Source: a phage. From it: 64,000 nucleotides of DNA. A program made the position numbers and the translations under genes. Below the pieces are notes generated by a model that made no database searches, was not told where the DNA came from, and saw only the letters and a list, made by a program, of their open reading frames with translations. Location of the stretch: the sequence record PZ445523.1. One strand, 5' to 3'. Below are positions 7,367 through 40,041 of the stretch, in pieces (position 1 is the first letter of the stretch; every line of letters starts with the position of its first letter).

Positions 7367-7396
7367 ATAATACCACAGTTTGAACTTGTTGTAAAC
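7367..7396 (-). promoter_or_regulatory. Early promoter (GTTTACA -35, TATTAT -10, A/T-rich upstream)
   Basis: Minus-strand GTTGTTTACA, 17-nt spacer, TATTAT; member of the repeated early-promoter family in this window. Confidence 0.5.
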
Positions 7397-7477
7397 AACT
7401 TTGTGAAAAATATTTTAGGGAATGACAAGAAGGGAACGATAGCTTAGAATGGTAATATACAGAATGCGAGAAAGAAA

Positions 7478-7492
7478 GGCCCAGAGGGCCCG
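7478..7492 (-). terminator. GC-rich stem-loop after nrdH
   Basis: ggcccagagggcc palindrome right after the nrdH stop. Confidence 0.4.
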
Positions 7493-7494
7493 TC

Positions 7495-7818
7495 TTAATC
7501 TTCTATGATATCTCTATCATATCCAAGTGAAATGAGAGTTTCTTTGAAGTGTTTAATGTTCTTTTGTCTAGAATCATTAATGAAAATGACTGGATAACGA
7601 ATGTTAAGAGATGTGAATCCAGCGCGTTTAGCAAGAGATACAATCAGTGGACGATCATACTCAATCTTACCGTTATTTGTAAGAACTTTATAGAAAGTAA
7701 AAGGAGCATTGAGCTCCTTTAGAAGTTTTGTAACTGATTGACATCCAGGACAACGACCTACTTCATCTGGAATTCCATAGACTTCAATCTTATTCTTTAA
7801 GTTCGAGTTTTGTTCCAC
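7495..7818 (-). CDS. nrdH: Glutaredoxin-like protein NrdH (start uncertain)
   Basis: CPGC redox motif in a thioredoxin-fold context (EVYGIPDEVGRCPGCQSV); lies upstream of nrdG/nrdD as in T4; ORF-track N-terminal extension rejected; GTG at 7818 is the nearest in-frame start. Confidence 0.6.
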   Translation of the reverse strand: MEQNSNLKNKIEVYGIPDEVGRCPGCQSVTKLLKELNAPFTFYKVLTNNGKIEYDRPLIVSLAKRAGFTSLNIRYPVIFINDSRQKNIKHFKETLISLGYDRDIIED

Positions 7819-8101
7819 GAGAAATAATTCCTTGGTAAGCCCAATAAGGAGGATTAACAGAATCATCACCAGAATTTTCTTCAGGGAAATAAACCTGGAT
7901 AACGAAGCCGGATTCATCAAAGGTGAAATAAGTAGTAGGCAGTTCACCTAACAAATCGGCACGAGCGTTGATTTCTTCGAGGTCTTGTTCACGTCCAGCC
8001 CAGAAGCTTGGGTTCAGACTACATTCATAGAAATAATAGTCATTACCGAACATATCAAAACCATTCCAACTCTCTACTACATACCGCTCAAAACTAATCA
8101 T
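7790..8101 (-). CDS. Hypothetical protein (103 aa)
   Basis: ORF with globular-looking composition; coupled to neighbours. Confidence 0.5.
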   Translation of the reverse strand: MISFERYVVESWNGFDMFGNDYYFYECSLNPSFWAGREQDLEEINARADLLGELPTTYFTFDESGFVIQVYFPEENSGDDSVNPPYWAYQGIISRGTKLELKE

Positions 8102-8103
8102 AA

Positions 8104-8319
8104 TTAAGCCTTTTTATCAAGAACAGCATTCAGCTTGTTAGTAATTTTATCCAGACGCTCATTGAACTCACTAGAAGATAAGCCCTTTTCTGGAGAAATT
8201 AAACTAATAACGAAAAATACAACAATAAAAGGAATAAGAAAAATAGCTCCAACTGCCATAAACAGAAAGAATGTTACAGTTGTAAGAAAATCAGCTAAAC
8301 CTTTACGAAATTTATACAT
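8104..8319 (-). CDS. Small membrane protein (71 aa)
   Basis: Two predicted transmembrane helices (FFLFMAVGAIFLIPFIVVFFVISLI). Confidence 0.5.
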   Translation of the reverse strand: MYKFRKGLADFLTTVTFFLFMAVGAIFLIPFIVVFFVISLISPEKGLSSSEFNERLDKITNKLNAVLDKKA

Positions 8320-8434
8320 ATTTTACCCTTAATTGATTAACCAAGCATTAATAAGCACTAAACTATATTGCGAATAAAATTCTGGACCAAAATGAAAAAT
8401 CATATCATTTATAGTATCCATAATGTAATTCAAT

Positions 8435-8905
8435 TTAATCATGTGTCCACCCCTCATCGGTATTTGACCAAAGTCGCTGATTATCTGATCCTCGCCACAG
8501 CTTTTTGGTAGGAAGATTTTTCTCATACTTCCCATCAATAATAACATCAACATATTTAAGCATTTCTAGTTGTTTAATATCTTCAAACTTATATCCTGTC
8601 CACAACCAAATGCTTTTATTGGGATAAAGATTTTTAATAGTTTGAACCACAGAGTGAATCACGTCTCTGTTATCAGGATAAAGAGGGTCTCCTCCAGTTA
8701 TAGTTAATCCTTCTATATAATCATTATTCAAACATTCAATTAATTGCTCTAGTGTTTCACCAGTGAATGGAATGCCATTTCTAGCATTCCATGTTGATTT
8801 ATTATAACACCCTTCACATTTATGCAAACAACCTGTAACGAAAAGAACGACCCTGCAACCAGGGCCATTCACAAAATCGCAAGGATAAAATCTATCATAA
8901 TTCAT
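8435..8905 (-). CDS. nrdG: Anaerobic ribonucleotide reductase activating enzyme (radical SAM)
   Basis: 156 aa; CxxxCxxC radical-SAM cluster (CLHKCEGC); matches T4 NrdG; start overlaps nrdD stop. Confidence 0.92.
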   Translation of the reverse strand: MNYDRFYPCDFVNGPGCRVVLFVTGCLHKCEGCYNKSTWNARNGIPFTGETLEQLIECLNNDYIEGLTITGGDPLYPDNRDVIHSVVQTIKNLYPNKSIWLWTGYKFEDIKQLEMLKYVDVIIDGKYEKNLPTKKLWRGSDNQRLWSNTDEGWTHD

Positions 8906-10719
8906 TGGTGTTTAACCCTATGCATGATTTCTTTATTTTTACCGAGATTAAATCCGCGTTCGTTCGGATTTCCCAAATAACCACATGTTCTTCTTATTGT
9001 GTTCATCTTTTTAGGATCAGTTTCTCCACAAATAGAACAAACAAATCCGTTTTCAGTAGGAGTCATTTCATGGGTACTTCCGCATGTAAAACATTTATCT
9101 ACCGGCATGTTAACACCAAAATAATCTAAATGTTGTGCAGCATAATCCCATACGGCCTCAAGACCTTTTAAGTTATTTTTCATATCAGGAAGTTCAACAT
9201 AAGAAATGTGACCACCTGTCGCAATGAAATGATATGGTGCTTCGCGGGAAATCTTTTCAAACGGAGTAATATTTTCTTCTACTGAAACATGGAAACTGTT
9301 AGTGTACCAGCCTTTATCGGTAACATCTTTTACGCTTCCATATTTTTCGGTATCGAGTTTACAGAAGCGATAACAAAGGTTTTCAGCAGGAGTCGAATAT
9401 AAACTAAAAGCAAATCCGGTTCTTTCAGTCCACTGTTTAAGATGAGCATTCATTTTAGTTAAAATTTCTCGTCCAATATCACGACCGACAAGAATATTCA
9501 ATTCGTGAATACCAATGTATCCTAAAGACACTGAACTTCTACCATTTTTAAATAACTCAATTATGTCGTCATCAGGTTTAAGACGAACCCCGAATGCACC
9601 TTCTTGGTAAAGAATAGGAGCAACAGTTGCTTTAACTCCTTTTAAGGAACTAATTCTACACATCAAAGCTTCAAAACACAAATCCATTCGTTCATTAAAT
9701 AGCTCAACAAATTTCTGTTCATTGAACTGTGTTCCAATATAAGAATCTAACGCGATGCGAGGAAGATTCAGTGTTACAACACCAAGATTATTACGTCCAT
9801 CAAGAATTTCATTGCCAGTCGAATCTTTCCATACGCTCAAGAAACTACGGCAACCCATTGGAGAAACAGGAACAGATGAACCAGTGATAGCTTTATTGTT
9901 CTTAGCTGAAATAATATCAGGATACATCCTTTTGCTTGCACACTCTAGAGCAAGCTGTTTAATATCATAGTTCGGATCGTCTTTATAAAGATTAACACCT
10001 TCTTCAACAAACATAACAAGCTTAGGGAAAATAGGAGTTATCCCATCACGACCAAGACCTTTAATACGATTTTTCAGAATTGCTTTCTGAATCATTCGTT
10101 CAGTCCAGTCAGTTCCCGTACCAAATGTAATTGTTACAAAAGGCGTTTGTCCGTTTGAACTAAAGAGAGTATTTACTTCATATTCATAAGCTTGGAATGC
10201 ATCGTATACGTCTTTTTCTGTTTTAGATTGAGCATAATTCAACGCATCGGCGATTTGCCATTTTTCTGCATCCTCAATGTGTTTTGCATAGGTGCGTTTA
10301 ACATAAGGAGAAAGTACTTTATCTACATTCGCAAAAGTCGTTCCGCCGTATTGGTGAGAAGCAACCTGCGCAGTAATTTGTGCCATAATCGCAGTAGCAA
10401 CGCCAATTGATTTAGGGGTTTCAATCTGCGCATTACCTAGCTTAAATCCGTTCTCAAGCATTCCTTTTAAATCTACTAAACAGCAATTAGTAAATGGAAG
10501 AGCAGGGGAATAATCAATATCGTGGAAATGGATAATTCCGCTTTCATGTGCTTTCATAATAAAAGACGGGACCATATTTTTGGCAATGTGTTTAGACACA
10601 ATACCAGCCATAAGGTCCCGTTGAGTTGGAAAAACACGAGAATCTTTATTAGCATTCTCGTTTAAAAGGTCTTTATTAGTTTTATGAATCAATCCTTCAA
10701 TTTCTTTTTCAATTGTCAT
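8902..10719 (-). CDS. nrdD: Anaerobic ribonucleoside-triphosphate reductase (class III RNR), uninterrupted
   Basis: 605 aa continuous ORF; C-terminal glycyl-radical region and Zn-ribbon cysteines (CFTCGSTHEMT...CSICG); length matches spliced T4 NrdD. Confidence 0.95.
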   Translation of the reverse strand: MTIEKEIEGLIHKTNKDLLNENANKDSRVFPTQRDLMAGIVSKHIAKNMVPSFIMKAHESGIIHFHDIDYSPALPFTNCCLVDLKGMLENGFKLGNAQIETPKSIGVATAIMAQITAQVASHQYGGTTFANVDKVLSPYVKRTYAKHIEDAEKWQIADALNYAQSKTEKDVYDAFQAYEYEVNTLFSSNGQTPFVTITFGTGTDWTERMIQKAILKNRIKGLGRDGITPIFPKLVMFVEEGVNLYKDDPNYDIKQLALECASKRMYPDIISAKNNKAITGSSVPVSPMGCRSFLSVWKDSTGNEILDGRNNLGVVTLNLPRIALDSYIGTQFNEQKFVELFNERMDLCFEALMCRISSLKGVKATVAPILYQEGAFGVRLKPDDDIIELFKNGRSSVSLGYIGIHELNILVGRDIGREILTKMNAHLKQWTERTGFAFSLYSTPAENLCYRFCKLDTEKYGSVKDVTDKGWYTNSFHVSVEENITPFEKISREAPYHFIATGGHISYVELPDMKNNLKGLEAVWDYAAQHLDYFGVNMPVDKCFTCGSTHEMTPTENGFVCSICGETDPKKMNTIRRTCGYLGNPNERGFNLGKNKEIMHRVKHQ

Positions 10720-11189: not shown

Positions 11190-11230
11190 AATAAACCCTT
11201 ACCTTAAATAGATAAGGGTATTTATTATTT

Positions 11231-11716: not shown

Positions 11717-11839
11717 GTCCCATCTCCATATCAATTAAGTCATTTATCGTTGGTTCATTATATACTGTTTCTTCATCAGTGTAAACCGGTTCTTCCGGCT
11801 CTGGCTCTACAGTTTCCCATCTAGCCGCCCACCAAGGTT

Positions 11840-15370: not shown

Positions 15371-15400
15371 ATTATACCACATCCTTGTGGCAAAGTAAAC
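15371..15400 (-). promoter_or_regulatory. Early promoter (GTTTAC -35, TATAAT -10)
   Basis: Minus-strand GTTTAC, about 17-nt spacer, TATAAT; upstream of ORF 14341..15342. Confidence 0.5.
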
Positions 15401-16430: not shown

Positions 16431-17345
16431 TTAAGATTTAAGTAAATCAACAATTTTAATTAACTTTTCACGCTCAGATTTAGCTTTACTACTCAGTCCA
16501 GATAGTCTGAAAATTTCATCGTCATATTGTTGAATAGAAATATTCAGCTCTTCAATTTGCTTATTAAAATAATCAATTTGCTCAGAATGTTTTTCGTTAC
16601 TACGAACTGGTGCAGGTTTTGTAGGCAATTTAGTTGAACTGGATTCATCCGGGCGATAAATTAAAATACAATTTGAACCAATCGGGCATTTAGCACCAGA
16701 CACATATTCTAATGTTCCAGCTTCTTTTAAAACTTCAAAAGCTAAACAGAGATGATGCCCCATATTAACATAATCTGTAGAGCGAGCTCTGATGTAATAA
16801 TCATCTCCACGAGTACTAAATTTAAAGCATTTAAGGTCTTCTGTATTATTAGTTTTAAAAATCATTTGTTTATCTAGACCTTTAGCTAATCGAGCGCCTA
16901 ATGCTAATAATCGTCGTTGATTTTCCCACAAATCCGCAATCATTTGGTCGAATGATAATTTCGGCATTAGTCGGCCATAAAGGTCATATCCTTTATTATA
17001 ATTACGAAGGATTTCACTCGCGTTAATACGAGACAATGCTCCAATTTTATTAAGGGCTTTCATAATGCGATTAGATAAACTCATTCCAGACCCATTTGTT
17101 CGCTGTAAATGTTTTTCTAATCCAAATCCAATATCAACTTTAAATTTATCTAAAATTTCAGCATGAACATCTCTGTCAATAACATTCAAATCCAAAGTTG
17201 GGTTAAATCTATGAAAAAATTTATCTGGCTCTCCACGACGAAATACAGTCCATTCATTCATCATTTTTTTATTAACTAAGGATTTAATTACTGCATTGAC
17301 ATTATTAATTACTACTGACATATTTTCCTCACTCAATTTTACCAA
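16431..17345 (-). CDS. Hypothetical protein (304 aa) with C-terminal coiled coil
   Basis: Fourth member of the tandem set; C-terminal heptad segment. Confidence 0.55.
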   Translation of the reverse strand: MVKLSEENMSVVINNVNAVIKSLVNKKMMNEWTVFRRGEPDKFFHRFNPTLDLNVIDRDVHAEILDKFKVDIGFGLEKHLQRTNGSGMSLSNRIMKALNKIGALSRINASEILRNYNKGYDLYGRLMPKLSFDQMIADLWENQRRLLALGARLAKGLDKQMIFKTNNTEDLKCFKFSTRGDDYYIRARSTDYVNMGHHLCLAFEVLKEAGTLEYVSGAKCPIGSNCILIYRPDESSSTKLPTKPAPVRSNEKHSEQIDYFNKQIEELNISIQQYDDEIFRLSGLSSKAKSEREKLIKIVDLLKS

Positions 17346-17730
17346 TTACGCGGAATAAGATTGAACAGACTATATAAGTACCACATATAGATTGAACTAA
17401 TGCCATTCCAAAGAACCAAACAATATTATCAAACCATGTCTGTTTTACGTCGAAAGGACGTAAACTTACAGTAATATTATCACCTTTTTCTATTGATGAA
17501 TACATCTCTGGGGAAATATATTCACTAAATCTATAACCGTCTTTGAGTTCATATACGGCAATAAACGATAAACTAGACCCCTTTCCTTGAGTTCCTGTAA
17601 GGGTATTAACTACAGGAACATCATAATCTTTATAATGCATATAATCATTAATTGCGTAATAACCATATGCAATTACTATACATAAACAACATATCAATAA
17701 ATTCAATCTTTTAATTATCAACTGTTTCAT
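17329..17730 (-). CDS. Membrane protein (133 aa)
   Basis: N- and C-terminal hydrophobic helices; directly downstream of an early promoter. Confidence 0.5.
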   Translation of the reverse strand: MKQLIIKRLNLLICCLCIVIAYGYYAINDYMHYKDYDVPVVNTLTGTQGKGSSLSFIAVYELKDGYRFSEYISPEMYSSIEKGDNITVSLRPFDVKQTWFDNIVWFFGMALVQSICGTYIVCSILFRVIGKIE

Positions 17731-17759
17731 AATAATCTCAATTAAAAGGGCTTAGAACC

Positions 17760-17786
17760 ATTATACCATCCTTGGTATAAAGCGGT
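17760..17786 (-). promoter_or_regulatory. Early promoter (TATAAT -10)
   Basis: Minus-strand TTTATAC...TATAAT upstream of ORF 17329..17730. Confidence 0.4.
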
Positions 17787-18313
17787 TATGCGAGTACCGT
17801 CTTTAACCGTTCTTCAAACTTCCGAAGAGTATTCTGGCGTTCAGCTCTTTGCTTTTTGTAAGTTTCAATACGCTCTGAAATGAGAGTGTATCGTTCATTT
17901 ACTGATTCTTTCATAAAATCAGGAATTTCACGAGAAGCTTTAATCTCGTCAAATTTATCAATAACAGCTTGCTCTTCAGCAATTAAGTTATCATACATCA
18001 AAATATCTTTCTTGATGAACTCAATATCTTCTTGAGTTACACGAGATAACTTAGATGCTTTATCCTTTTTGTACTGTTCGTTAGTATCACGAGACCAGTG
18101 TAATGTACGATTTTTATTCGTATTCTTGTAAATTTCTACAATACCAATCTCATCAATAATAACGATCCAATTCCAACGGGATTTGTAAATTTGTCCTCCA
18201 TCAACAGTGATTTCACCTCCGATTGAGATGTCATTAAAGAACTTGCTTTGTGCTTCAGATTTAAATTTACCATCGTTGTAATTTACCAGGTTGAAAATAT
18301 CTTTAGCGTTCAT
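17786..18313 (-). CDS. Hypothetical protein (about 175 aa) with C-terminal coiled coil
   Basis: Start reset to MNAKDIF after GGAGGAAC; the upstream 20 codons in the ORF track translate the promoter block. Confidence 0.5.
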   Translation of the reverse strand: MNAKDIFNLVNYNDGKFKSEAQSKFFNDISIGGEITVDGGQIYKSRWNWIVIIDEIGIVEIYKNTNKNRTLHWSRDTNEQYKKDKASKLSRVTQEDIEFIKKDILMYDNLIAEEQAVIDKFDEIKASREIPDFMKESVNERYTLISERIETYKKQRAERQNTLRKFEERLKTVLA

Positions 18314-18337
18314 TTTGTGTTCCTCCGTAGTTGATAG

Positions 18338-18371
18338 TTGTATAGTACCACAGAGGAACGGTCTTGTAAAC
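18338..18371 (-). promoter_or_regulatory. Early promoter with conserved downstream block
   Basis: Minus-strand GTTTACA, 17-nt spacer, GGTACTATACAACTATCAAC block, then GGAGG and ATG. Confidence 0.5.
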
Positions 18372-18373
18372 AA

Positions 18374-18688
18374 CTAAAAGAAACTTCTTTCACAATTTTT
18401 TCCACTGAACCACGCGCTCACTGCTTTCTTAGTCTCAGGAGCAGTATTATCCATAAACCATTCAAAGGCAGCCTTTTTATGATTCTGGAGGGCTTCTCGG
18501 GCTTTAATCTGCTCACGGTCTATTAACACTAACATATGAGCCTTTCTTGTCACCATGGGCTTCTTATGATTTTTTGAATACTCCCAATCATTTGTCCATC
18601 GCATCGTTGTTGCGAACTGGAATACAGCTTCTTTAATTTTAGTTTCGTAAATTTCACGAGCCTTTGAGTATAACATCACTACCTCCAT
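18374..18688 (-). CDS. Hypothetical protein (104 aa)
   Basis: ORF on the early strand upstream of the 18338 promoter. Confidence 0.45.
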   Translation of the reverse strand: MEVVMLYSKAREIYETKIKEAVFQFATTMRWTNDWEYSKNHKKPMVTRKAHMLVLIDREQIKAREALQNHKKAAFEWFMDNTAPETKKAVSAWFSGKNCERSFF

Positions 18689-18758
18689 TTACCAGTTTAA
18701 TTCTAGTCATCTTTTTGATGGCAGTCCATATAATCTATTTCTGAACTGCCTTTTTGTC

Positions 18759-19478
18759 TTATGATTCTTCTAAATGTCTTTTCTGAAAAGTTGATACCAT
18801 ACTACGATAAGGTTCATTTGGATACCCGTGTTTTATAGCTTCCTTTGTAAATTTTCTCCATCCGTATTTAGTTTCTTTCCAAAGCTCGAATAATTCATCT
18901 TCATACTGCCATATAGTTAAATGAGAACGCTTTGCAGCTTTAATTCCATTAATGTGCTTTTCTTTTACTGTAGGATTGCTTAGTGTCTTTTTAATAATAT
19001 TACTAACTTTTCTAACAAAAGCTGGGTCCTTATATCGTTGTGAAGTTTTTATTGAAGTGTTTAATTTAGCTTCCGGCGTGGATGTGACCTCTTTCATCTT
19101 TTTCTTCATATGCTCTATATGATTAGGATTTTTCCATAAATTTATAGAATGCTTTTTACATTTTATCCTAGTTTCATCTGCAACCTTTCCTCCTTCACCC
19201 CCATATGACAGGTTAACGCAGTTTTTTCCATATTTCAATTTACCTGCCATGATATATAATATTTCGGCTTGTACCATTTTATCATAATTATCAAAAACTT
19301 CTAAAACCGTTTTTGATAATATATGGTCATTTGACACTTTTACACGTTCTATATAATTTCCACTACCAACATACGAATCATTGATGTTATTAGTTATATG
19401 TCGACCATAATAGTATTTCTTAATACCTGTCTTTAAATTTAATATTTCAGTTTTATAGATAGTAAAATATTTTTTCAT
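18759..19478 (-). CDS. GIY-YIG homing-endonuclease-like protein (Seg/Mob-like)
   Basis: N-terminal GIY-YIG-type pattern (IYKTE...YYGRH...YVGSG) resembling segB; basic C-terminal region. Confidence 0.55.
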   Translation of the reverse strand: MKKYFTIYKTEILNLKTGIKKYYYGRHITNNINDSYVGSGNYIERVKVSNDHILSKTVLEVFDNYDKMVQAEILYIMAGKLKYGKNCVNLSYGGEGGKVADETRIKCKKHSINLWKNPNHIEHMKKKMKEVTSTPEAKLNTSIKTSQRYKDPAFVRKVSNIIKKTLSNPTVKEKHINGIKAAKRSHLTIWQYEDELFELWKETKYGWRKFTKEAIKHGYPNEPYRSMVSTFQKRHLEES

Positions 19479-20443
19479 TTTAATAATACCGTTTCAGCAA
19501 TTTCTTCCCAATGGTTTTTGTCGGTCATAATAAAGTCAGCAAGATAAAGTGCAGTACGCAGTGAAACATTGCGTAAACGATTAACATTGACTTTCATCCA
19601 TGATAATGCTTTATAAGTTTCTTCATCAGAAAGACCGCGCTTTTGCATCATGTCAGTTGAAAGAATAACATCTTCAACCCTGACCATAATTTCTTCATTA
19701 GTGTGAACACCCAAATCTAAATAAACTGAGCGGGACACTAATGCTTGTAAATGTGGAGCAAGTTTAGTACCACGGTCTAATTCGCGGTCAATATCAACGT
19801 TTGTGATAAAAACAATCGTTCCTTTAAATTCAAACTCACGCTCAATGCCTTTTTCTTCTAAGTAAGAAGATGCAGTGCTCCAGCAGACTTTACGGGTCTC
19901 TCCAGTGTCCAGAGCAGCTTTCAGAAGATTAAGAATGTCCATATCAGAGAAAACATCCACATCATCAATCAAAAGGACAGAATTCTCTTCACGATTATTC
20001 CAAAGCTGTTCATAAAGACCGATACCAGAGATTTTACCATTAATGCTTTTATACTCAATGTATCCAATATCATTTGCTTTATTCAAAGCTTTATCTAAAG
20101 AATACGTTTTACCAATACCTGCCGCACCAGAGATAATTAATGAACGAATGTTTCCGTTAATAATACCATTCGTCATCATTCCCATAACATTAAATCTTTT
20201 ATTAATGCGGGTTTTCATATCTTCATATGATTCTTTAACTTCTTCAACTTTTACACCATCATATGAAATGTCTGATTTGTAAACCCAAACACCGCGACGT
20301 TTACCATCAATTTCAACAAAAACTTTACCGTCTCCTTGTGCATCTACCGGAGCATTATCTGGGAACCATTCGCCTAAGAGCTCAAAAGTTCCAGAAATTT
20401 CTTTACCGAAGTAGATACCCTTATTGATAGTTACAGTTTTCAT
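19475..20443 (-). CDS. P-loop NTPase (AAA-like ATPase)
   Basis: Walker A GAAGIGKT and Walker B VLLIDDVD; start reset to MKTVTINKG after GGAG; ORF-track extension is promoter read-through. Confidence 0.6.
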   Translation of the reverse strand: MKTVTINKGIYFGKEISGTFELLGEWFPDNAPVDAQGDGKVFVEIDGKRRGVWVYKSDISYDGVKVEEVKESYEDMKTRINKRFNVMGMMTNGIINGNIRSLIISGAAGIGKTYSLDKALNKANDIGYIEYKSINGKISGIGLYEQLWNNREENSVLLIDDVDVFSDMDILNLLKAALDTGETRKVCWSTASSYLEEKGIEREFEFKGTIVFITNVDIDRELDRGTKLAPHLQALVSRSVYLDLGVHTNEEIMVRVEDVILSTDMMQKRGLSDEETYKALSWMKVNVNRLRNVSLRTALYLADFIMTDKNHWEEIAETVLLK

Positions 20444-20473
20444 TTTATTCTCCAAATCCGTATCAGTTGATAG

Positions 20474-20507
20474 TTGTATAGTACCATAAAGCTTTATGCT
20501 TGTAAAC
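20474..20507 (-). promoter_or_regulatory. Early promoter with conserved downstream block
   Basis: Minus-strand A/T-rich upstream, GTTTACA, TACTATAC block; upstream of the ATPase gene. Confidence 0.5.
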
Positions 20508-20536
20508 AACTTTGTGAAAAATTTTTGAAATAAAAA

Positions 20537-20556
20537 AGGGGAGCCCGAAGGCTCCC
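20537..20556 (-). terminator. Stem-loop terminator after the nucleotidyltransferase-like gene
   Basis: Minus-strand GGGGAGCCUUCGGGCUCCCC followed by a U-rich run. Confidence 0.55.
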
Positions 20557-20558
20557 CA

Positions 20559-21572
20559 TCATTTATAATAACTTCGGTGGTTTTCAAGATAGACCTTCTC
20601 AAGGAAGTCATCCCAGAAACTCATGTCTACTTTTTGCTGCATACCGTTCTTAGAAGCTTCAGTAGATGCTGCTTCTACTTGATCGACCACATCTTCCAAA
20701 AACTCTTGAACCGTTTTAAATGGATGTTTACCCAACTTCACGTCGAGAATAAATGGAGCATCTTGGAGTGGATAAATCAAGTCGCCAGTTTTGTAAATTT
20801 CCAATAGTTGAAGTCCACCACGACAAGCATGGCTCAGAGCTTTCCAGTCAATACCTTCATTGGCTTCAGCCTTACGAGCACGTTCACCGTATTCAGCATC
20901 TAATTTGTTCAGTGACTGCTTAAGCTCAATAAGAGAAAGCGTTGTCTGATATTTACGACCCAACACAGTGTAGAACGTTTGTGGGCCTGTTTTCTCATGA
21001 TTATGGAACACCCATTCACAGAATTCGTTTTCTGGAAGACGATGCTTAATATCTTCAACTTTAGTGCGACGCTGCTTAATAGAACCATCTTCTTGGTAAT
21101 CAACCCATTGCTCAGGGATTTGATTAACTACTTTCAATACATCACGTAATGCAGCCAAACGAGAACCCTTGACACCGTATTTAGAAGCTTGCTTGCGGAC
21201 ATATCCTAAATATGATTTCATGTTAGTCGTATAAAAACGAGAACGGTTGTCTTGAATAAACTTCCACACATCAGGCAAATCAGATTTAACCACTAGTTCA
21301 GGTGGAGTGTGAAGCATATCTAATGCTACAGTTTCACCATCTGCTGCTAATTTAAAGAAATATTTAAGACTGTATAGTTCATGGTCAATATCATCTTTAG
21401 TGTTTTTAGATGATGTGTTGTTAGTGTTTTTACTCATATGCTCTTTAACATTTCCGATAAGAATATCGCGAGCAGGAGGAACAAAGATTTCTTTAAAATC
21501 TACATCAGATTCTGGGGTAGAAGTTCCATAAAGATGACTACCAAAATAGCTTTTCATTACTGTTTTCATCAT
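20559..21572 (-). CDS. Pol-beta superfamily nucleotidyltransferase-like protein (337 aa)
   Basis: N-terminal GS-x9-DxD motif (GSHLYGTSTPESDVDF) typical of minimal nucleotidyltransferases; large C-terminal extension. Confidence 0.5.
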   Translation of the reverse strand: MMKTVMKSYFGSHLYGTSTPESDVDFKEIFVPPARDILIGNVKEHMSKNTNNTSSKNTKDDIDHELYSLKYFFKLAADGETVALDMLHTPPELVVKSDLPDVWKFIQDNRSRFYTTNMKSYLGYVRKQASKYGVKGSRLAALRDVLKVVNQIPEQWVDYQEDGSIKQRRTKVEDIKHRLPENEFCEWVFHNHEKTGPQTFYTVLGRKYQTTLSLIELKQSLNKLDAEYGERARKAEANEGIDWKALSHACRGGLQLLEIYKTGDLIYPLQDAPFILDVKLGKHPFKTVQEFLEDVVDQVEAASTEASKNGMQQKVDMSFWDDFLEKVYLENHRSYYK

Positions 21573-23417: not shown

Positions 23418-23452
23418 AGATTACTATACCATAACCTTGCCAACTTGTAAAC
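23418..23452 (-). promoter_or_regulatory. Early promoter
   Basis: Minus-strand GTTTACA, 17-nt spacer, TATAGT; followed by GGAG and a short ORF. Confidence 0.45.
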
Positions 23453-23815: not shown

Positions 23816-23998
23816 TTACACTCTCGTATTATGATCGATAATTTCATCAAGAAACATATCTAACGCTTCTAAAGCATTATCAACTTTAGCTTCAAATTCT
23901 TCAATACCTGATAAGGCAAAGTTAACGCGTTCCTCATCTGCTTTACGAATTAAAGCTACCAATTCCTTAATTTTATCCGCTTGTTCAATACTAATCAT
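23816..23998 (-). CDS. Small acidic helical protein (about 60 aa), paralog family member
   Basis: Start reset to [14 protein letters not shown] (TGATG overlap with upstream stop). Confidence 0.45.
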   Translation of the reverse strand: MISIEQADKIKELVALIRKADEERVNFALSGIEEFEAKVDNALEALDMFLDEIIDHNTRV

Positions 23999-24186
23999 TA
24001 TTCCACCACATATGAAAGAGAGAATATTGCACACGCCATGTGAGTTGCAGCTTCATCACACATATTATAACGTTTCTTAAGAAGTTCTACAAGTTCTTCA
24101 CTAGTGACTTCATCCATGTCGACGAAAAAATCACCATTAATGATGACGTAGATATTTCCTTCTTGATTGAGTGCTTCAATTTTCAT
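23998..24186 (-). CDS. Hypothetical small protein (about 62 aa)
   Basis: Start reset to MKIEALNQ after AAGAGGAGAA; upstream codons in the ORF track are the promoter block. Confidence 0.5.
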
Positions 24187-24211
24187 GATGTTCTCCTCTT
24201 TATCCGATGGT

Positions 24212-24244
24212 TGTATAGTACCACAGCTCAAACGGAAAGTAAAC
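24212..24244 (-). promoter_or_regulatory. Early promoter with conserved downstream block
   Basis: Minus-strand GTTTAC, spacer, GGTACTATACAAC block. Confidence 0.5.
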
Positions 24245-24259: not shown

Positions 24260-24275
24260 AGTCTCCCGAAGGAGA
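24260..24275 (-). terminator. Stem-loop with UUCG tetraloop
   Basis: Minus-strand GUCUCCUUCGGGAGAC followed by a U run, downstream of ORF 24282..24668. Confidence 0.55.
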
Positions 24276-24281
24276 CTAATG

Positions 24282-28576: not shown

Positions 28577-28604
28577 GTTATTCTCCTCTTAACTGATAGG
28601 AAAA

Positions 28605-28633
28605 TTATACCACAGCCAAGAGGAAAAGTAAAC
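28605..28633 (-). promoter_or_regulatory. Early promoter upstream of regB
   Basis: Minus-strand GTTTAC, about 18-nt spacer, TATAAT; then AAGAGGAGAA and the regB ATG. Confidence 0.55.
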
Positions 28634-30793: not shown

Positions 30794-31267
30794 TTATTTG
30801 AATGATTTAACGTACTGAATAGAACCTTTACTATTCACAAAGGCAATTTTACCATTTTTGTTATACATGGTAGCAGTACGCTGATAGCCATAAGTTTGTT
30901 TACCAGATTGATAACCAACTAATGCAAAATTATCTTCGCCCATTTTATTCTGCTTAGCGCGGATACGTTCATGACCGTGCGCCATAAGAACCTTAGCGTC
31001 GCCAGTTGCAATGGATCTACGAGTTTTTTCATCTTCAACTGTATTAACAAAGTCGTCAAATGAATCAAATTTAGCATGAGATTTATTATACAGTTTTCCA
31101 TCTACTGCATAATTATATCCCTGTACATCCATCTCAACTTCTGTACCATCATCCAATACAGCAGTGATTTTTTGACCTTTTTTAAATTTCAAAAGATCAG
31201 TAAAAGATTCAGCAATAATTTGAGAATTAATAGCTGCTTCAGTAATAAATTCTTGATATGTTTTCAT
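30794..31267 (-). CDS. Internal-protein-like capsid-targeted protein (157 aa)
   Basis: N-terminal capsid-targeting leader MKTYQEFITE followed by AA, as in T4 IPI/IPII/IPIII; payload unrecognised. Confidence 0.6.
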   Translation of the reverse strand: MKTYQEFITEAAINSQIIAESFTDLLKFKKGQKITAVLDDGTEVEMDVQGYNYAVDGKLYNKSHAKFDSFDDFVNTVEDEKTRRSIATGDAKVLMAHGHERIRAKQNKMGEDNFALVGYQSGKQTYGYQRTATMYNKNGKIAFVNSKGSIQYVKSFK

Positions 31268-31716: not shown

Positions 31717-31748
31717 ATATACTATCACAATTCTAGGAGAAAGTAAAC
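31717..31748 (-). promoter_or_regulatory. Early promoter upstream of denV
   Basis: Minus-strand GTTTAC, spacer, TAGTAT/TATATT, then GGAGGG and the denV ATG. Confidence 0.45.
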
Positions 31749-35142: not shown

Positions 35143-35198
35143 AGTATTTCCTTAGGTTGGTATAATTAGATAATATCACGTTTTAATAGATTGTAAAC

Positions 35199-35534
35199 TT
35201 ATTCTTCGTCTAGCTCATCGATAAAGACGTCGATGGCCTCGATAACGGCATCATTGATAGCCAATAAAGTAAAATCATCGTCAGTGCCTTTAGAAGATTC
35301 TAAAGCATTGATATATGCTTGGTTAGCAAGTTCCCAAGCCTTTTTAAAATAAGGAGCTTCATCATCAGGACAAATATCCCGCACGCCTTCAAAGATACGT
35401 TTGGCATAATCTAACACCCATTGTACAGGCATGTTTTGAGAACGTTCGTTAAACTCTTTAAATTCCTTAGATTCAAAAAGCTCTTCAGGATAATAATTTC
35501 GATTACAAAAAGCTTTACTAAAGTTACGTTTCAT
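35199..35534 (-). CDS. Hypothetical acidic protein (111 aa)
   Basis: ORF on the early strand. Confidence 0.5.
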   Translation of the reverse strand: MKRNFSKAFCNRNYYPEELFESKEFKEFNERSQNMPVQWVLDYAKRIFEGVRDICPDDEAPYFKKAWELANQAYINALESSKGTDDDFTLLAINDAVIEAIDVFIDELDEE

Positions 35535-35589
35535 AATGTTCTCCTCAAATTATGGGCTCATAATATCTCAATCATGAGCCTATGTAAAC

Positions 35590-35853
35590 TTATTTCATAT
35601 TATTGAAATATTCTTCTGCGATTTCGTCGTTATCATGGTAAACTTTAGAAGACAGTTTAACATAACCTTCTGCCGTGAACATGTTAATCACAACCTTTAC
35701 AGTATACCACTGACCATCTTCATTACCCATTACTGCGTAAGTTTCAAACATCGGATGATCAGGACCGATAACTTTAATATCATTCACTGTACGACCGAAA
35801 TCTTCTGAAACACATTTCATAAAGAAGTTGAACAGTTCGCCGTAATTATCCAT
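35590..35853 (-). CDS. Hypothetical protein (about 87 aa)
   Basis: Start reset to MDNYGELFNFF; upstream codons in the ORF track translate the promoter block. Confidence 0.5.
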   Translation of the reverse strand: MDNYGELFNFFMKCVSEDFGRTVNDIKVIGPDHPMFETYAVMGNEDGQWYTVKVVINMFTAEGYVKLSSKVYHDNDEIAEEYFNNMK

Positions 35854-35892
35854 TTCATTCTCCAAGTTGTTTTCTGTATCAGTAGTTGATAG

Positions 35893-35926
35893 TTGTATAG
35901 TACCATGGAAGGACAAGGATGTAAAC
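35893..35926 (-). promoter_or_regulatory. Early promoter with conserved downstream block
   Basis: Minus-strand A/T-rich upstream, GTTTACA, spacer, GGTACTATACAACTATCAAC. Confidence 0.5.
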
Positions 35927-36058
35927 AGTTTTGTGAAAAAATTTTTAAAAAGTTTTAGGGAATTCTAGGGTCAGGAGGGGCAATTAAAAGGTAGGATAAT
36001 ATATTATAAAGGGTATAAACTAAATGATGCCTAGAGAGGCCCGGAAAGGCCTAGATAC

Positions 36059-36090
36059 CAAAAAGCCCCAACCTTTCGGTCGGGGCTAAG
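36059..36090 (-). terminator. Terminator hairpin; copy 1 of a 32-nt perfect direct repeat
   Basis: Minus-strand CUUAGCCCCGACCGAAAGGUUGGGGCUUUUUG; identical copy at 36595..36626. Confidence 0.6.
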
Positions 36091-36094
36091 AATG

Positions 36095-36556
36095 TTATTT
36101 GATTTGTTTAGCAGACCAAATGCGGTCTTTAATAATTTTTTGGATGTCTTCAACATACTCTAGGTCATGAGCATGTGGATTATCTTTGAAACTATGAGCT
36201 CGCGCAAGTTTCTGGCCTTCGGTCTTAATTATCAAAAGTTCTTTAAGAATTGCTTCATATCTAGAGATAATTCCTTTAGCAATATTTTTTTCTTGTGCTG
36301 CTTTAGGGTCAGCCTTAGGAGCAGGTTTACCAGAAGGTTTTTCGAAAGCCGCACCAGTAGCAACCAGGCTTTTCCAGGCGGTGGTAACATAGTTACCCAC
36401 AAAGCCTTCAGCTCTCATATCGTCATAGAACTTGTACCGAGATTCGTCAGAAGCATCTTTATAAGAATATTTACCAGCTTTAATAGCAGCAGTTGCTACA
36501 GCGCGAACATCTGAAGCGGATGCTTCGGTCATTAAAAATTGAGCATAAGTTTTCAT
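36095..36556 (-). CDS. Internal-protein-like capsid-targeted protein (153 aa)
   Basis: N-terminal leader MKTYAQFLMTE followed by ASA; flanked on both sides by the identical 32-nt hairpin. Confidence 0.55.
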   Translation of the reverse strand: MKTYAQFLMTEASASDVRAVATAAIKAGKYSYKDASDESRYKFYDDMRAEGFVGNYVTTAWKSLVATGAAFEKPSGKPAPKADPKAAQEKNIAKGIISRYEAILKELLIIKTEGQKLARAHSFKDNPHAHDLEYVEDIQKIIKDRIWSAKQIK

Positions 36557-36594
36557 TGTTATTTCCTGTGTTAATTAACTCATCTATTTATATC

Positions 36595-36626
36595 AAAAAG
36601 CCCCAACCTTTCGGTCGGGGCTAAGC
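36595..36626 (-). terminator. Terminator hairpin; copy 2 of the 32-nt perfect direct repeat
   Basis: Same 32 nt as 36059..36090; lies downstream of the tRNA/stable-RNA transcription unit. Confidence 0.6.
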
Positions 36627-36639
36627 CTTGCGGCAACCT

Positions 36640-36936: not shown

Positions 36937-37013
36937 TGGTCGAGGCAGAAGGATTCTAACCTTCAACCAACGGATTAGAAATCCGTTGCTCTATACAATT
37001 GAGCTATGCCCCG
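36937..37013 (-). tRNA. tRNA-Arg (anticodon UCU)
   Basis: Hand-folded cloverleaf: acceptor CGGGGCA/UGCCUCG, anticodon loop UUUCUAA, encoded CCA; immediately downstream of segB. Confidence 0.8.
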
Positions 37014-37016
37014 TAA

Positions 37017-37682
37017 TTAAAATTTCATTTTTCGACCTTTAAACCATCCTTCTGGAATTGGGTCAGTTTTCTTAATACGTTTAGAAACTTTTTCATCTAA
37101 TGAATGAATCCACATCATACCAAATTGGGAATTCTTTTCACCTTTCTGGTGATTATTTTTAGCGTGAATTTCTTTCATTTTATTAATAGTTTCAAGAGTA
37201 TGATGCTTATTTAAAAATCTGCTATTATTTAAAAATTTTTCTTTGTATTCAGGAGTTGACCATAAACGTTTAAATACATTTGAACCATTTTTACGATATT
37301 TTTCTTGAAGTAAAATATCATTTTCAAAACGTGACTTAAACGATTTAGCTCCTTTTAAGCTAGCATCTTTCTTCTGGTTTAGCATTCCAGGAATATTTAC
37401 ATGATCCCATCCGCCTTCACCGCCAAGTTTTAAATTATACACATCTGGTCTATTTAAAAACTCTTCTGTGACAATATTTTTCTCGGCTTCAAGCATAGAT
37501 TCTTTATCATCAAAATACTCTAATATTTCTTTAGAAAAATTTTCTATACCATATTTATCTTGGGCTCTTTTTAATAATTTACCAGAACCCATATATCCAT
37601 CATCTAAATTTTCGGTAGAATGCACACCAATATAAATTTTATTATTAATTTTATTTGTTATTTTATAAGTGTAATAGAACAT
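37017..37682 (-). CDS. segB: GIY-YIG homing endonuclease SegB
   Basis: 221 aa; GIY-YIG motifs (YTYKITN...IYIGVHS...YMGSG); sits inside the tRNA cluster as in T4. Confidence 0.85.
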   Translation of the reverse strand: MFYYTYKITNKINNKIYIGVHSTENLDDGYMGSGKLLKRAQDKYGIENFSKEILEYFDDKESMLEAEKNIVTEEFLNRPDVYNLKLGGEGGWDHVNIPGMLNQKKDASLKGAKSFKSRFENDILLQEKYRKNGSNVFKRLWSTPEYKEKFLNNSRFLNKHHTLETINKMKEIHAKNNHQKGEKNSQFGMMWIHSLDEKVSKRIKKTDPIPEGWFKGRKMKF

Positions 37683-37723
37683 AAATATCTCCTATTTCTA
37701 AGAGTATTTATGTTCTCAAAATA

Positions 37724-37797
37724 TGACCCAGACCAGATTTGAACTGGTAACCTTTCCCTTATGAGGGGACTGCTGCTAACCATTGAGCTACAGGGCC
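37724..37797 (-). tRNA. tRNA-Ile (anticodon CAU) or tRNA-Met
   Basis: Cloverleaf with T-arm ACCAG-TTCAAAT-CTGGT and anticodon loop CUCAUAA; T4 encodes an AUA-reading tRNA-Ile here; one acceptor mismatch in my fold. Confidence 0.6.
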
Positions 37798-37798
37798 T

Positions 37799-37874
37799 TG
37801 GTGCTGATTGACGGAATCGAACCGCCGACCTTCTCATTACAAGTGAGTTGCTCTACCTACTGAGCTAAATCAGC
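37799..37874 (-). tRNA. tRNA-Thr (anticodon UGU)
   Basis: Acceptor GCUGAUU/AAUCAGC, anticodon loop CUUGUAA, T-arm GGTTCGATTCC, encoded CCA. Confidence 0.8.
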
Positions 37875-37876
37875 AA

Positions 37877-37963
37877 CGGAGGCGATAGGATTTGAACCTA
37901 TGAGTCGCCGGAGCGACTGCCGGTTTTCAAGACCGGTGCATTAAACCACTCTGCCACGCCTCC
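37877..37963 (-). tRNA. tRNA-Ser (anticodon UGA)
   Basis: Type II tRNA with long variable arm; acceptor GGAGGCG/CGCCUCC, anticodon loop CUUGAAA. Confidence 0.8.
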
Positions 37964-37965
37964 AG

Positions 37966-38039
37966 TCTCCGTGGCAGGATTTGAACCTACGACATTCTGC
38001 TCCCAAAGCAGACGCTCTACCAAACTGAGCTACACGGAG
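37966..38039 (-). tRNA. tRNA-Pro (anticodon UGG)
   Basis: Acceptor CUCCGUG/CACGGAG, anticodon loop UUUGGGA, T-arm GGTTCAAATCC. Confidence 0.8.
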
Positions 38040-38049
38040 TAAATTAAAT

Positions 38050-38123
<74 letters not shown>

Positions 38124-38128
38124 AAATT

Positions 38129-38215
38129 TGGTACGAGAAGTGGGACTCGAACCCACAAGGAAATCATTCCGCAGCATTTTAAGTGCTGTGCCTTTACCAA
38201 TTTGGCCATTCTCGC
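38129..38215 (-). tRNA. tRNA-Leu (anticodon UAA)
   Basis: Type II tRNA; acceptor GCGAGAA/UUCUCGU, anticodon loop CUUAAAA, encoded CCA. Confidence 0.8.
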
Positions 38216-38216
38216 G

Positions 38217-38289
38217 CTGGGAATAAAGGACTCGAACCTTTGCATCTAGCAGTCAAAGTGCTATGCCTTACCAACTTGGCTAATTCCCA
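38217..38289 (-). tRNA. tRNA-Gln (anticodon UUG)
   Basis: Acceptor UGGGAAU/AUUCCCA, anticodon loop CUUUGAC; abuts tRNA-Leu. Confidence 0.8.
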
Positions 38290-38386
38290 ATTATTAACAA
38301 AGGCTCTCAAACAAGAACCCTTGATGATAGAGGGTATTAATCAGTGCGGTATGAGTTAATAATAACAAATAATTCTTAAAGCATAT

Positions 38387-38674
38387 TTACCATTTATGAT
38401 AATACGTATTTACGATACATTCAAGACCCAAAGGATTCTTGAAAATATCATATTCAAGAGGACCTTTTTCTGTTTCAATAAAGAAATCAAAATTTACTGT
38501 ATTAAATTTACGGTCTTCCTTCACTAATTTAACTTGAGAAGATGAACGGTCAATGTAAACCTTTTCAACTTCAAAACATGTTAAAATTCCATAATCATCA
38601 ATCAAGGCTTTAGCAGCGTCTTGATCATATTTATATCCATTTTCAATGGACGATACTTTCGCATAAAGAATCAT
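38387..38674 (-). CDS. Hypothetical protein (95 aa)
   Basis: First ORF upstream of the tRNA cluster on the early strand. Confidence 0.5.
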   Translation of the reverse strand: MILYAKVSSIENGYKYDQDAAKALIDDYGILTCFEVEKVYIDRSSSQVKLVKEDRKFNTVNFDFFIETEKGPLEYDIFKNPLGLECIVNTYYHKW

Positions 38675-38676
38675 TA

Positions 38677-39087
38677 TCAGCCTCTATCAACGATAGTATG
38701 AGTATGGGCATTTACGATTTGCCACCAGTCGAAACGATTGGAACCATAATCTGGTTTATTTTCATTTTCTTTAATGATATCACGCAGTTTATCTTCTGTT
38801 TCAGCATACGCAATTAAATCATCATATCCACCACAAGGATAATAATTATCACCTGCGAATAAAAGAAAATTTACCTTAGATGGATTTACGTAATAATGGT
38901 CTTTAGGATATTTAGTTCCTCTCCAATCAGTTACTTCAACATAACGATAAGAAAATCCATTTTTACTTTCAATCCAACTCCACGCTTCAAAAGGAGTATT
39001 AAAAACTTTATCAGGTATTAAATTACCTTCAAAATGAGAAGGATTTGCATAATCCCCGGCATAAACATAATATTCGTTAATACTCAT
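38677..39087 (-). CDS. Hypothetical protein (136 aa)
   Basis: ORF on the early strand; aromatic-rich. Confidence 0.5.
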   Translation of the reverse strand: MSINEYYVYAGDYANPSHFEGNLIPDKVFNTPFEAWSWIESKNGFSYRYVEVTDWRGTKYPKDHYYVNPSKVNFLLFAGDNYYPCGGYDDLIAYAETEDKLRDIIKENENKPDYGSNRFDWWQIVNAHTHTIVDRG

Positions 39088-39273
39088 TTATTCACCTTTA
39101 GAAATTTTATCCATAACGATAGCGATTAAACCAATTAAAAATGCTACTACAAGTGAAAACACATTTTCTGCTGTAGTCAGTAATCCGCATATAAATCCAA
39201 CAAACATTGAAAAACTAAAAGCGGAAGCAGAAATTGCAATAGCAACATTTCGAATTAATTCACAGCGTTTCAT
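39088..39273 (-). CDS. Small membrane protein (61 aa)
   Basis: Two hydrophobic helices; downstream of an early promoter. Confidence 0.5.
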   Translation of the reverse strand: MKRCELIRNVAIAISASAFSFSMFVGFICGLLTTAENVFSLVVAFLIGLIAIVMDKISKGE

Positions 39274-39300
39274 TTTATTCTCCTCAGTAGTTGATAGGGT

Positions 39301-39331
39301 AATAATATCACCACCCTATCTAAAAGTAAAC
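39301..39331 (-). promoter_or_regulatory. Early promoter
   Basis: Minus-strand GTTTAC, spacer, TATTAT-like -10; then GAGGAG and ATG. Confidence 0.45.
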
Positions 39332-39341
39332 GGTTTATAAA

Positions 39342-39650
39342 CTATTTTATTCCGCGTGATGCAATTGTGTTCTGTCGTTTAACGCCAGTTTGTTTAAAGT
39401 CATGATTGTCGATTTGATCGGTACGAGCAACTCCGAATGATGATTTGATCTTAGCTTTAGATCCTTTAGTTATAGAAATAAACATCTCGGAAGCCCCTTT
39501 CTTAAAGTCCGAGGCGATTACTTCAACGCCGTTCTTAGCAAGTGACTTCAGAATTGCCTCCGCATACTCATCGTCAAGACTCGCCTGAGTATTAATAACG
39601 AATGTCTTTGGTGCAGCAGCTTCATTGATAAATTCTTTAAATGTTTTCAT
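39342..39650 (-). CDS. Internal-protein-like capsid-targeted protein (102 aa)
   Basis: Leader MKTFKEFINE followed by AAA; own copy of the duplicated promoter/leader module. Confidence 0.6.
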   Translation of the reverse strand: MKTFKEFINEAAAPKTFVINTQASLDDEYAEAILKSLAKNGVEVIASDFKKGASEMFISITKGSKAKIKSSFGVARTDQIDNHDFKQTGVKRQNTIASRGIK

Positions 39651-39679
39651 TTTATTTTCCTAATTAATTTTGATAGGGT

Positions 39680-39711
39680 AATAGTATCACTACTAAAACC
39701 CTGTGTAAACA
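39680..39711 (-). promoter_or_regulatory. Early promoter (module copy A)
   Basis: Minus-strand GTTTACA, 17-nt spacer, TACTAT; near-identical to the copy at 40010..40041. Confidence 0.5.
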
Positions 39712-39722
39712 ACTTTGTGAAA

Positions 39723-39980
39723 TTATTTTAAATCTTCTAATCGTTTCTTCATCTTAGAACCGTTCTTAGCGATTTCGCCTGCATCAGAGCATAATGCTAA
39801 AAGCGCTTTAACTTTAGTTTGGTCTCCTTTAAAAGATGAAGGATCAACAGCAGCAGCAAGTTCTTTAATACGAGAGAAAAGACGCTCAGCTTCAGCTAAA
39901 GCCATTCCAAGCTTTACTTCCATACCATGAGAAGATTCAGTAATAGTAGTTTTTGTAGCAAACTCTTTGAAAGTTTTCAT
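39723..39980 (-). CDS. Internal-protein-like capsid-targeted protein (85 aa)
   Basis: Leader MKTFKEFATKTTITE; occupies the T4 ipI position next to 57B, but the payload differs from recalled IPI. Confidence 0.55.
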   Translation of the reverse strand: MKTFKEFATKTTITESSHGMEVKLGMALAEAERLFSRIKELAAAVDPSSFKGDQTKVKALLALCSDAGEIAKNGSKMKKRLEDLK

Positions 39981-40009
39981 TTTATTTTCCTAATTAATTT
40001 TGATGAGGT

Positions 40010-40041
40010 AATAGTATCACTACCTCATCAGTATGTAAACA
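40010..40041 (-). promoter_or_regulatory. Early promoter (module copy B)
   Basis: Same architecture and flanking sequence as 39680..39711. Confidence 0.5.

Follow-up and report, generated by a model that had tools for sequence, protein, structure and literature searches.

Early promoters of T4 type and false N-terminal extensions of reading frames in a phage genome segment

Repeated early promoters

A stretch of 64,000 nucleotides (nt) of phage sequence record PZ445523.1 (the window) carries repeated A/T-rich units ahead of genes on its minus strand. These units are almost certainly sigma-70-dependent early promoters of a T4-like phage (Tequatrovirus), with the similar N-termini of several open reading frames (ORFs) that run through them arising as an artefact of taking the longest ORF. 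The initial annotation of this DNA had proposed at least 13 minus-strand genes with an early promoter upstream; 14 are found, spanning positions 7367..40040, and all lie on the same strand as their genes. They are listed here with the start codon of the downstream gene, the position of the T4 counterpart and the z-score of the associated hairpin (described below) where these apply.

7367..7396 (-): early promoter before 55.6 (ATG 7336); -10 TATTAT; 44 bits; T4 counterpart 41706
15371..15400 (-): early promoter before nrdC.4 (ATG 15342); T4 counterpart 50973
18342..18371 (-): early promoter before nrdC.8 (ATG 18313); hairpin z -4.7; T4 counterpart 53943
20478..20507 (-): early promoter before nrdC.10 (ATG 20443); T4 counterpart 55384
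23423..23452 (-): early promoter before mobD.2 (ATG 23394); 15-bp hairpin with the -10 in its loop, z -5.1
24215..24244 (-): early promoter before mobD.5 (ATG 24186); contains a degenerate copy of the 20-mer described below
28604..28633 (-): early promoter before regB (ATG 28576); pairing of the spacer with the leader, Shine-Dalgarno sequence included, z -4.7
31719..31748 (-): early promoter before denV (ATG 31693); 5' part homologous to T4 promoter 66498 (before ipIII)
35170..35198 (-): early promoter before e.6; spacer 16 nt long; begins right behind the e.7 stop codon
35560..35589 (-): early promoter before e.7; TGn absent; after the e.8 stop codon; hairpin around the -10, z -4.9
35897..35926 (-): early promoter before e.8 (ATG 35853); T4 counterpart 70696
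39302..39331 (-): early promoter before trna.4 (ATG 39273); z -3.5
39681..39710 (-): early promoter before internal-protein-like ORF 39342..39650 (MKTFKEFINE...); near-duplicate of promoter 40011..40040
40011..40040 (-): early promoter before internal-protein-like ORF 39723..39980 (MKTFKEFATK...); z -6.3; T4 counterpart 73939 (ipI locus)

The combination that defines a T4-type early promoter (GTTTAC, a 16–18 nt spacer and TAnnnT) is present at 14/14 sites. GTTTAC is followed by A at nine sites and by T at five, the spacer is 17 nt in 13/14 promoters and 16 nt in the other, the extended -10 motif TGn is found in 13/14, and the -10 elements are TAYWAT-like (TAnnnT) throughout. The 25 nt upstream (UP region) have an A+T content of 60–88%, and TTTCACAAA(G/A)(T/C)T is common to the UP regions of five copies. 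The architecture first described for these sites (A/T-rich DNA, GTTTAC(A), a spacer of roughly 17 nt and a -10 region) is thus borne out. The region after the -10 is commonly (C)TATCAAC, the ATG lies 25–43 nt from the -10, and a Shine-Dalgarno sequence (GGAG, GAGG, AGGA or AAGG) is situated 6–10 nt before the ATG in 14/14. Alignment of the copies, the check suggested with the initial annotation, gives the expected picture: the RNA polymerase contact elements, the start region and the leader are conserved and the spacers are unrelated. The positions kept across the 14 copies are the -35, TGn and -12/-11/-7, and the spacers vary freely.

The motif GTTTAC-N(15-19)-TANNNT matches the window 20 times against 4.6 expected, with 18 of the 20 on the minus strand. 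A position-weight matrix built from the promoter copies and covering -61..-4 finds 13 minus-strand sites at 25–48 bits and none on the plus strand, while Markov shuffles peak at 17.5 bits; the e.6 site with its 16-nt spacer brings the number to 14. Candidate sites at 6951 and 17503 were dropped (13 bits, within the shuffle range, and inside coding sequence), as was 11786, inside 49.1 and upstream of pin, where UP region and TGn are absent and the score is below 12 bits.

Stop codons belonging to the upstream genes (35199-35201 and 35590-35592) abut the -35 elements of e.6 (35198) and e.7 (35589) (TAAGTTTAC), so that the UP regions of these two promoters are within the preceding coding sequences.

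Orthologous positions in T4 hold a counterpart for 13 of the 14 promoters. An N in the spacer of the T4 record is the sole reason why the pattern search in T4 missed the e.7 promoter, and the only promoter without a counterpart, 39710, precedes an extra internal-protein-like gene. Some 40 T4 early promoters (Pe) are reportedly tabulated by Miller et al. (2003). The figure of 40 is also used in PMC9161530. The T4 promoters are described as having GTTTAC at -36..-31, A-rich sequence at -40 to -44, GT-rich sequence 5' of -12 and conserved T-12, A-11 and T-7 (PMC1524935). They have been named 'uber UP/-35/TGn/-10 promoters' that beat host promoters, and Alt ADP-ribosylation of the RNA polymerase alpha subunit boosts them further (Hinton 2010, PMC2988021). 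In T4, 55.6, nrdC.4, nrdC.8, nrdC.10, regB, e.7 and e.8 are early by time-resolved RNA-seq and proteomics, and mobD.5 is early at the RNA level (PMC9697503 supplements).

There is next to no chance that the sites are instead T4 middle (MotA-box) or late (TATAAATA) promoters. Although middle promoters have -10 elements in common with them, and the nrdC.10 spacer contains the MotA-box-like AAAGCTTTA, middle promoters have the -35 replaced by a MotA box centred at -30 (PMC2988021), whereas at 14/14 sites GTTTAC occupies the -35 position of sigma-70, followed by a spacer of 16–17 nt, the defining early feature. The nrdC.10 GCTT is 5 nt from the -10 (3 nt from the end of GCTTTA) rather than 11–13 nt, and the late consensus occurs in none of the -10 regions.

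A repeated 20-mer and over-extended reading frames

Part of the promoter sequence recurs almost unchanged. The 20-mer GGTACTATACAACTATCAAC, which comprises TGn, the -10 and the start region, has three exact copies in the window, all on the minus strand, where none is expected; allowing up to three mismatches adds none. The initial annotation counted about six near-invariant copies, which is too many: beyond the three there is a fourth with four mismatches, and the remaining ten promoters differ from the 20-mer at 6–11 of 20 positions. The three exact copies are identical in T4.

18330..18349 (-): exact 20-mer, copy 1 (TGn, -10, start region), nrdC.8 promoter
20466..20485 (-): exact 20-mer, copy 2, nrdC.10 promoter
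35885..35904 (-): exact 20-mer, copy 3, e.8 promoter
24203..24222 (-): degenerate copy with four mismatches, before mobD.5

The longest ORFs of the four genes downstream run upstream through this block.

17786..18373 (-): longest ORF with a false 20-codon extension from a TTG start; true nrdC.8 coding sequence (CDS) 17786..18313
19475..20611 (-): longest ORF with a false 56-codon extension; true nrdC.10 CDS 19475..20443
23998..24231 (-): longest ORF with a false 15-codon extension (has GTIQPSD); true mobD.5 CDS 23998..24186
35590..35916 (-): longest ORF with a false 21-codon extension; true e.8 CDS 35590..35853

The coordinates of these four ORFs were given correctly from the outset, although the peptide GTIQLST, attributed to all of them, is present in three, the fourth having GTIQPSD. 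An example of the hypothetical N-terminal peptide of the extended ORFs is ...GTIQLSTTEEHK... The N-terminal extensions of the four ORFs are false and non-coding, as was originally proposed. The N-termini annotated in T4 match from their first residue, which falls on the internal ATGs at 18313, 20443, 24186 and 35853, in agreement with the proposal that the true starts lie beyond the downstream Shine-Dalgarno sequence. Four GenBank Tequatrovirus records annotate the short forms (nrdC.8 528 nt, nrdC.10 969 nt); these records have differing feature tags and locus-tag styles of automatic pipelines, and one carries RASTtk and PHANOTATE notes. The nrdC.10 extension crosses both the promoter and a terminator (a GC-rich hairpin with a T-run) and overlaps the 3' end of nrdC.11, and the upstream start codons (TTG/ATG) of the extended ORFs are either inside the -35/spacer region or beyond a terminator. 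The reading frame through the block is likewise not kept among related phages, and together these observations are the reason to regard the extensions as false.

The variation between phages comes from an IMG/VR scan with the exact 20-mer, which returned 21 stretches from T4-like contigs with at most six copies per genome. The block stands before at least eight different genes in these phages, and the same promoter-leader unit is found before unrelated genes, the nrdC.8-type unit preceding MKKIIKAIW... in phage sequence L020. Across phages and genes the block is separated from the ATG by 15, 16, 22, 25, 29, 30, 31 or 32 nt; e.8 orthologues alone show gaps of 30, 31 or 32 nt, and nrdC.8-type leaders of related phages have 15 versus 16 nt. 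Because these gaps vary by non-multiples of three, the frame through the block is not conserved.

On a rival reading the block is real coding sequence, encoding a conserved N-terminal peptide (GTIQLST...) of several early proteins from an upstream TTG or ATG. The four ORFs are indeed open through it in the same frame, and several related phages keep in-frame gaps of 16, 22, 25 or 31 nt. However, the gaps are 30, 31 and 32 nt among e.8 orthologues, and those of 15 and 29 nt before other genes are out of frame or lead to stops. No Shine-Dalgarno sequence is seen at the upstream starts, whereas each internal ATG has GGAG or GAGG 6–10 nt upstream; T4 and the four GenBank annotations take the short start; and paralogues whose coding regions behind the block are unrelated have the same 20 nt, with no difference at any of the three codon positions. 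A coding block is thus highly improbable and is in practice already refuted.

The shared GTIQLST N-termini arise because the longest-ORF rule walks upstream through the promoter wherever an in-frame stop happens to be absent. The four extensions linked to the block are real instances of this, but the effect is not specific to it: over-extension is a generic property of the longest-ORF track, where 22 of 68 genes open ahead of the T4-type start. The same holds for two further genes behind promoters: the longest ORF of nrdC.4 is 17 codons too long and reaches into the promoter, and that of mobD.2 is 8 codons too long.

A public record has a call on the same kind of sequence. In L024 (ON528742.1; 3467-3565) a PHANOTATE-derived 32-aa 'hypothetical protein' is placed in the nrdC.11-nrdC.10 intergenic region; it overlies the terminator and early promoter and is a spurious call on the cassette.

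Several points weigh against the assignment of these units as early promoters with non-coding extensions, or narrow what supports it. A scan with a generic sigma-70 consensus is not enriched in the window (79 sites versus 84 expected, and 69 versus 67), so it is the T4-specific extended consensus that carries the case. The e.7 promoter lacks TGn and has a leave-one-out score of only 8 bits. Most of the distinct gaps between block and ATG (16, 22, 25 and 31 nt) are in frame, and the frame argument therefore depends on the minority gaps of 15, 29, 30 and 32 nt. Finally, we infer the exact start positions and RNA polymerase contacts from the T4 literature.

Each unit belongs to a compact cassette between genes with, in order, sometimes a terminator hairpin, then the A/T-rich UP region, GTTTAC(A/T), a 17-nt spacer, TGn and TAnnnT, the start region, a leader with a Shine-Dalgarno sequence that places the ATG 25–43 nt from the -10, and the ATG itself. 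Host RNA polymerase, either unmodified or Alt-modified, would initiate immediately after infection a few bases downstream of the -10. By analogy with T4, the alpha C-terminal domains would contact the UP region, and sigma-70 regions 4, 3 and 2 would contact GTTTAC, TGn and TAnnnT respectively. Transcription is predicted to start ~7 nt past the -10, with the A of ATCAAC as the probable first base, and since the start would fall so close to the -10 the mRNA is expected to begin inside or just after the 20-mer. Translation would then proceed from the ATG preceded by the Shine-Dalgarno sequence.

Window identity and gene content

The window is by its sequence a segment of a Tequatrovirus (T4-like) genome. 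It has a G+C content of ~35%, with genes on the minus strand as far as ~43 kb. Segments 17000-21000 and 7000-31000 have 95–98% identity to hundreds of Tequatrovirus genomes, including T6, RB32, AR1 and RB14, with 756–1023 matching records; for T6, RB32, AR1 and T4 the identity is ~96–98%. Positions 2.2–46 kb are collinear with T4 (AF158101) 36–80 kb. Genes were named by tblastn of 83 T4 proteins against the window, which gives the order a-gt, 55, nrdH, nrdG, 49, pin, nrdC to nrdC.11, mobD.x, rI, tk and vs, followed by regB, denV, e, e.2-e.8, segB, a tRNA cluster, trna.2-4, 57B, 57A, 1, 3, 2 and 4.

A 239-aa ORF (18759..19478, minus strand) is located between nrdC.9 and nrdC.10, where T4 has intergenic DNA only; records of T6 and RB32 type call it a site-specific intron-like or homing endonuclease. 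The window in turn lacks the T4 mobile elements mobB, mobC and mobD as well as the nrdD intron with I-TevII.

Hairpins at the promoters

Hairpin stability was expressed as a z-score against dinucleotide shuffles and compared with 60 control segments (Mann-Whitney). Ten of the 14 promoters are within hairpins (z <= -1.9) that have the -10 element in or near the loop, and the mean z is -2.8 for promoters versus -0.2 for controls (p = 2e-4). Four promoters (e.8, nrdC.10, e.6 and 55.6) have no significant hairpin. An earlier control using spacer/leader chimeras (p = 0.004) was set aside in favor of the dinucleotide-shuffle z-scores; pyrimidine-rich spacers, which are many here, pair with whatever Shine-Dalgarno sequence they are given, and this weakens that control. 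In an Rfam search the promoter hairpins and leaders match no family, and only eight tRNAs were found. As described for T4, the hairpins would form only in read-through RNA and act there as attenuators. Two terminator-like hairpins lie upstream of promoters.

20538..20557 (-): intrinsic-terminator-like hairpin GGGGAGCCTTCGGGCTCCCC with T-run, just upstream of the nrdC.10 promoter and within the false extension
24260..24277 (-): terminator-like hairpin AGTCTCCTTCGGGAGACT with T-run, directly upstream of the mobD.5 promoter

The 3' arm of the hairpin covers the Shine-Dalgarno sequence in nrdC.8, regB, denV and mobD.5; in nrdC.8 the pairing is between GTTCCTC of the spacer and GAGGAAC of the Shine-Dalgarno region. 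Differences between phages keep the pairing, often through G-U pairs, in the mobD.2 stem (T4, the window and two other phage sequences, L010 and L011) and the regB stem (T4 versus the window). The substitutions in the regB and mobD.2 stems change A-U to G-U, and the nrdC.8-type stem of phage sequences L012 and L020 gains two pairs.

The spacers of promoters 18371, 28633, 31748 and 24244 are pyrimidine-rich (GTTCCTC, TTCCTCTT, TTTCTCC and TTTCCG) and complementary to the downstream Shine-Dalgarno region.

A gene's own promoter leaves the spacer untranscribed, so only read-through RNA could form a spacer/Shine-Dalgarno hairpin. It is conceivable, if rather unlikely, that nrdC.8, regB, denV and mobD.5 are subject to promoter-specific translation, with read-through RNA hiding the ribosome-binding site and RNA from the own promoter exposing it. 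Were this so, it would be the early-gene counterpart of the control by a late promoter within a hairpin in T4 e, soc, 49 and I-TevI. The same hairpins may equally be just the attenuator hairpin of published PeSL (promoter-early stem-loop) cassettes.

Cassettes and internal-protein loci

To judge by their sequences, the promoter units have the published architecture of PeSL cassettes. PeSLs consist of an AT-rich region, early promoter, stem-loop, Shine-Dalgarno sequence and ATG, and are tied to insertions and deletions; the stem-loop is 'most commonly between -35 and -10 or overlapping the -10 box' and includes G-T pairs (PMC2839356 section 14). The PeSL promoter consensus from the T4/PST pair is TTTACW-N17-TAYWAT (PMC4122927).

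Three breaks in homology between T4 and the window are at promoter cassettes: 39311 is inside the trna.4 promoter spacer, 39738 is at promoter 39710, and 31697/31704 is in the denV leader, the rest of that promoter being of T4 ipIII type. The ORFs between the cassette breaks are internal-protein (IP)-like. These breaks represent only two loci, both of internal proteins, and most others are elsewhere.

That the repeats are primarily recombination linkers or ends of mobile cassettes of PeSL type, made identical by gene conversion and promoter-like only secondarily, is very unlikely. It would account for the same promoter-leader cassette preceding at least eight unrelated genes and for the breakpoints within promoter cassettes at both IP loci, and crossovers of PeSL mini-circles are published as mapping between the -10 element and the ATG (PMC2839356). 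However, promoter function is still compatible with such exchange, and the positions conserved in the 14 copies are exactly the polymerase contact elements. PeSL promoters are moreover very strong in reporter fusions (PMC2839356 section 14), and most T4/window breakpoints (18761/19496, 21573, 26180 and 36089) are away from promoters. As early promoters, the near-identical -10, start and leader blocks before non-orthologous genes would reflect strong selection on the promoter elements, and probably also the exchange and duplication of cassettes as units, in line with published PeSL and IP cassette shuffling.

The ORFs 39342..39650, 39723..39980 and 30794..31267 (all minus strand) have the leader motif MKT(F/Y)(K/Q)EF and replace T4 ipI, ipII and ipIII. 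Gene order around denV is unlike that of T4, the window having e - denV - IP-like - vs.8. A further minus-strand ORF, 36095..36556, encodes a 153-aa IP-like protein (MKTYAQFLMTEA...) absent from T4. It is flanked by 36-nt direct repeats (36055-36090 and 36590-36625; 97% identical), each with a terminator hairpin, and is preceded by the T4 late-promoter consensus TATAAATA. It has the look of a cassette whose insertion was at a terminator, not at an early promoter.

Significance

The main value of these observations is as a quality-control note, since about a third of the genes in this phage region (22/68) come out too long in the longest-ORF track, and an extension across a repeated promoter yields a spurious 'shared N-terminal motif'. 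Recognition of the 14 early promoters also shows how the early region of this T4-like phage is divided into operons, and it marks cassette boundaries where genes were exchanged, at the IP loci. The finding is correct but unremarkable and adds nothing new to the biology, T4 early promoters and PeSL cassettes being already known and textbook material.

Comparison with known systems

In T4, the genes e, soc, 49 and I-TevI reportedly have a ribosome-binding site that is sequestered in long transcripts and a promoter inside the hairpin, an arrangement attributed to McPheeters et al. (1986) and Miller et al. (2003). The spacers of nrdC.8, regB, denV and mobD.5 are similarly complementary to the Shine-Dalgarno region. 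Unlike the T4 examples, in which late promoters are in the hairpin, the internal promoter in the window is predicted to be early.

Gene cassettes of T-even internal proteins are said to have been described by Repoila et al. (EMBO J, 1994), a study that PMC4122927 cites. The window resembles them in its variable IP-like ORFs with the conserved MKT(F/Y)(K/Q)EF leader and in conserved flanks that hold transcription and translation signals. This likeness covers promoters 40040, 39710 and 39331 and the denV/IP locus, and is limited to 3–4 of the 14 promoters.

The likeness to PeSL cassettes (Arbiol et al. 2010, PMC2839356; Comeau et al. 2014, PMC4122927) extends to the AT-rich region, the early promoter, the stem-loop over the -10, the Shine-Dalgarno sequence and the ATG, and to the clustering of cassettes in variable early regions, and may extend to their position beside insertions and deletions between close relatives. 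It differs in that 4/14 copies in the window (e.8, nrdC.10, e.6 and 55.6) lack a significant hairpin.

The closest match is with the early promoters of T4 itself. Two units depart from T4: promoter 39710 serves an extra internal-protein-like gene, and the denV promoter is a hybrid of a T4 ipIII-type promoter with the denV leader. The T4 promoters otherwise have the same A-rich UP region, GTTTAC at -36..-31, 17-nt spacer, TGn and TAnnnT, with a start at A preferred, they are placed before the early genes of the same nrdC-tk-regB-e-tRNA region, and nothing of substance sets those of the window apart.

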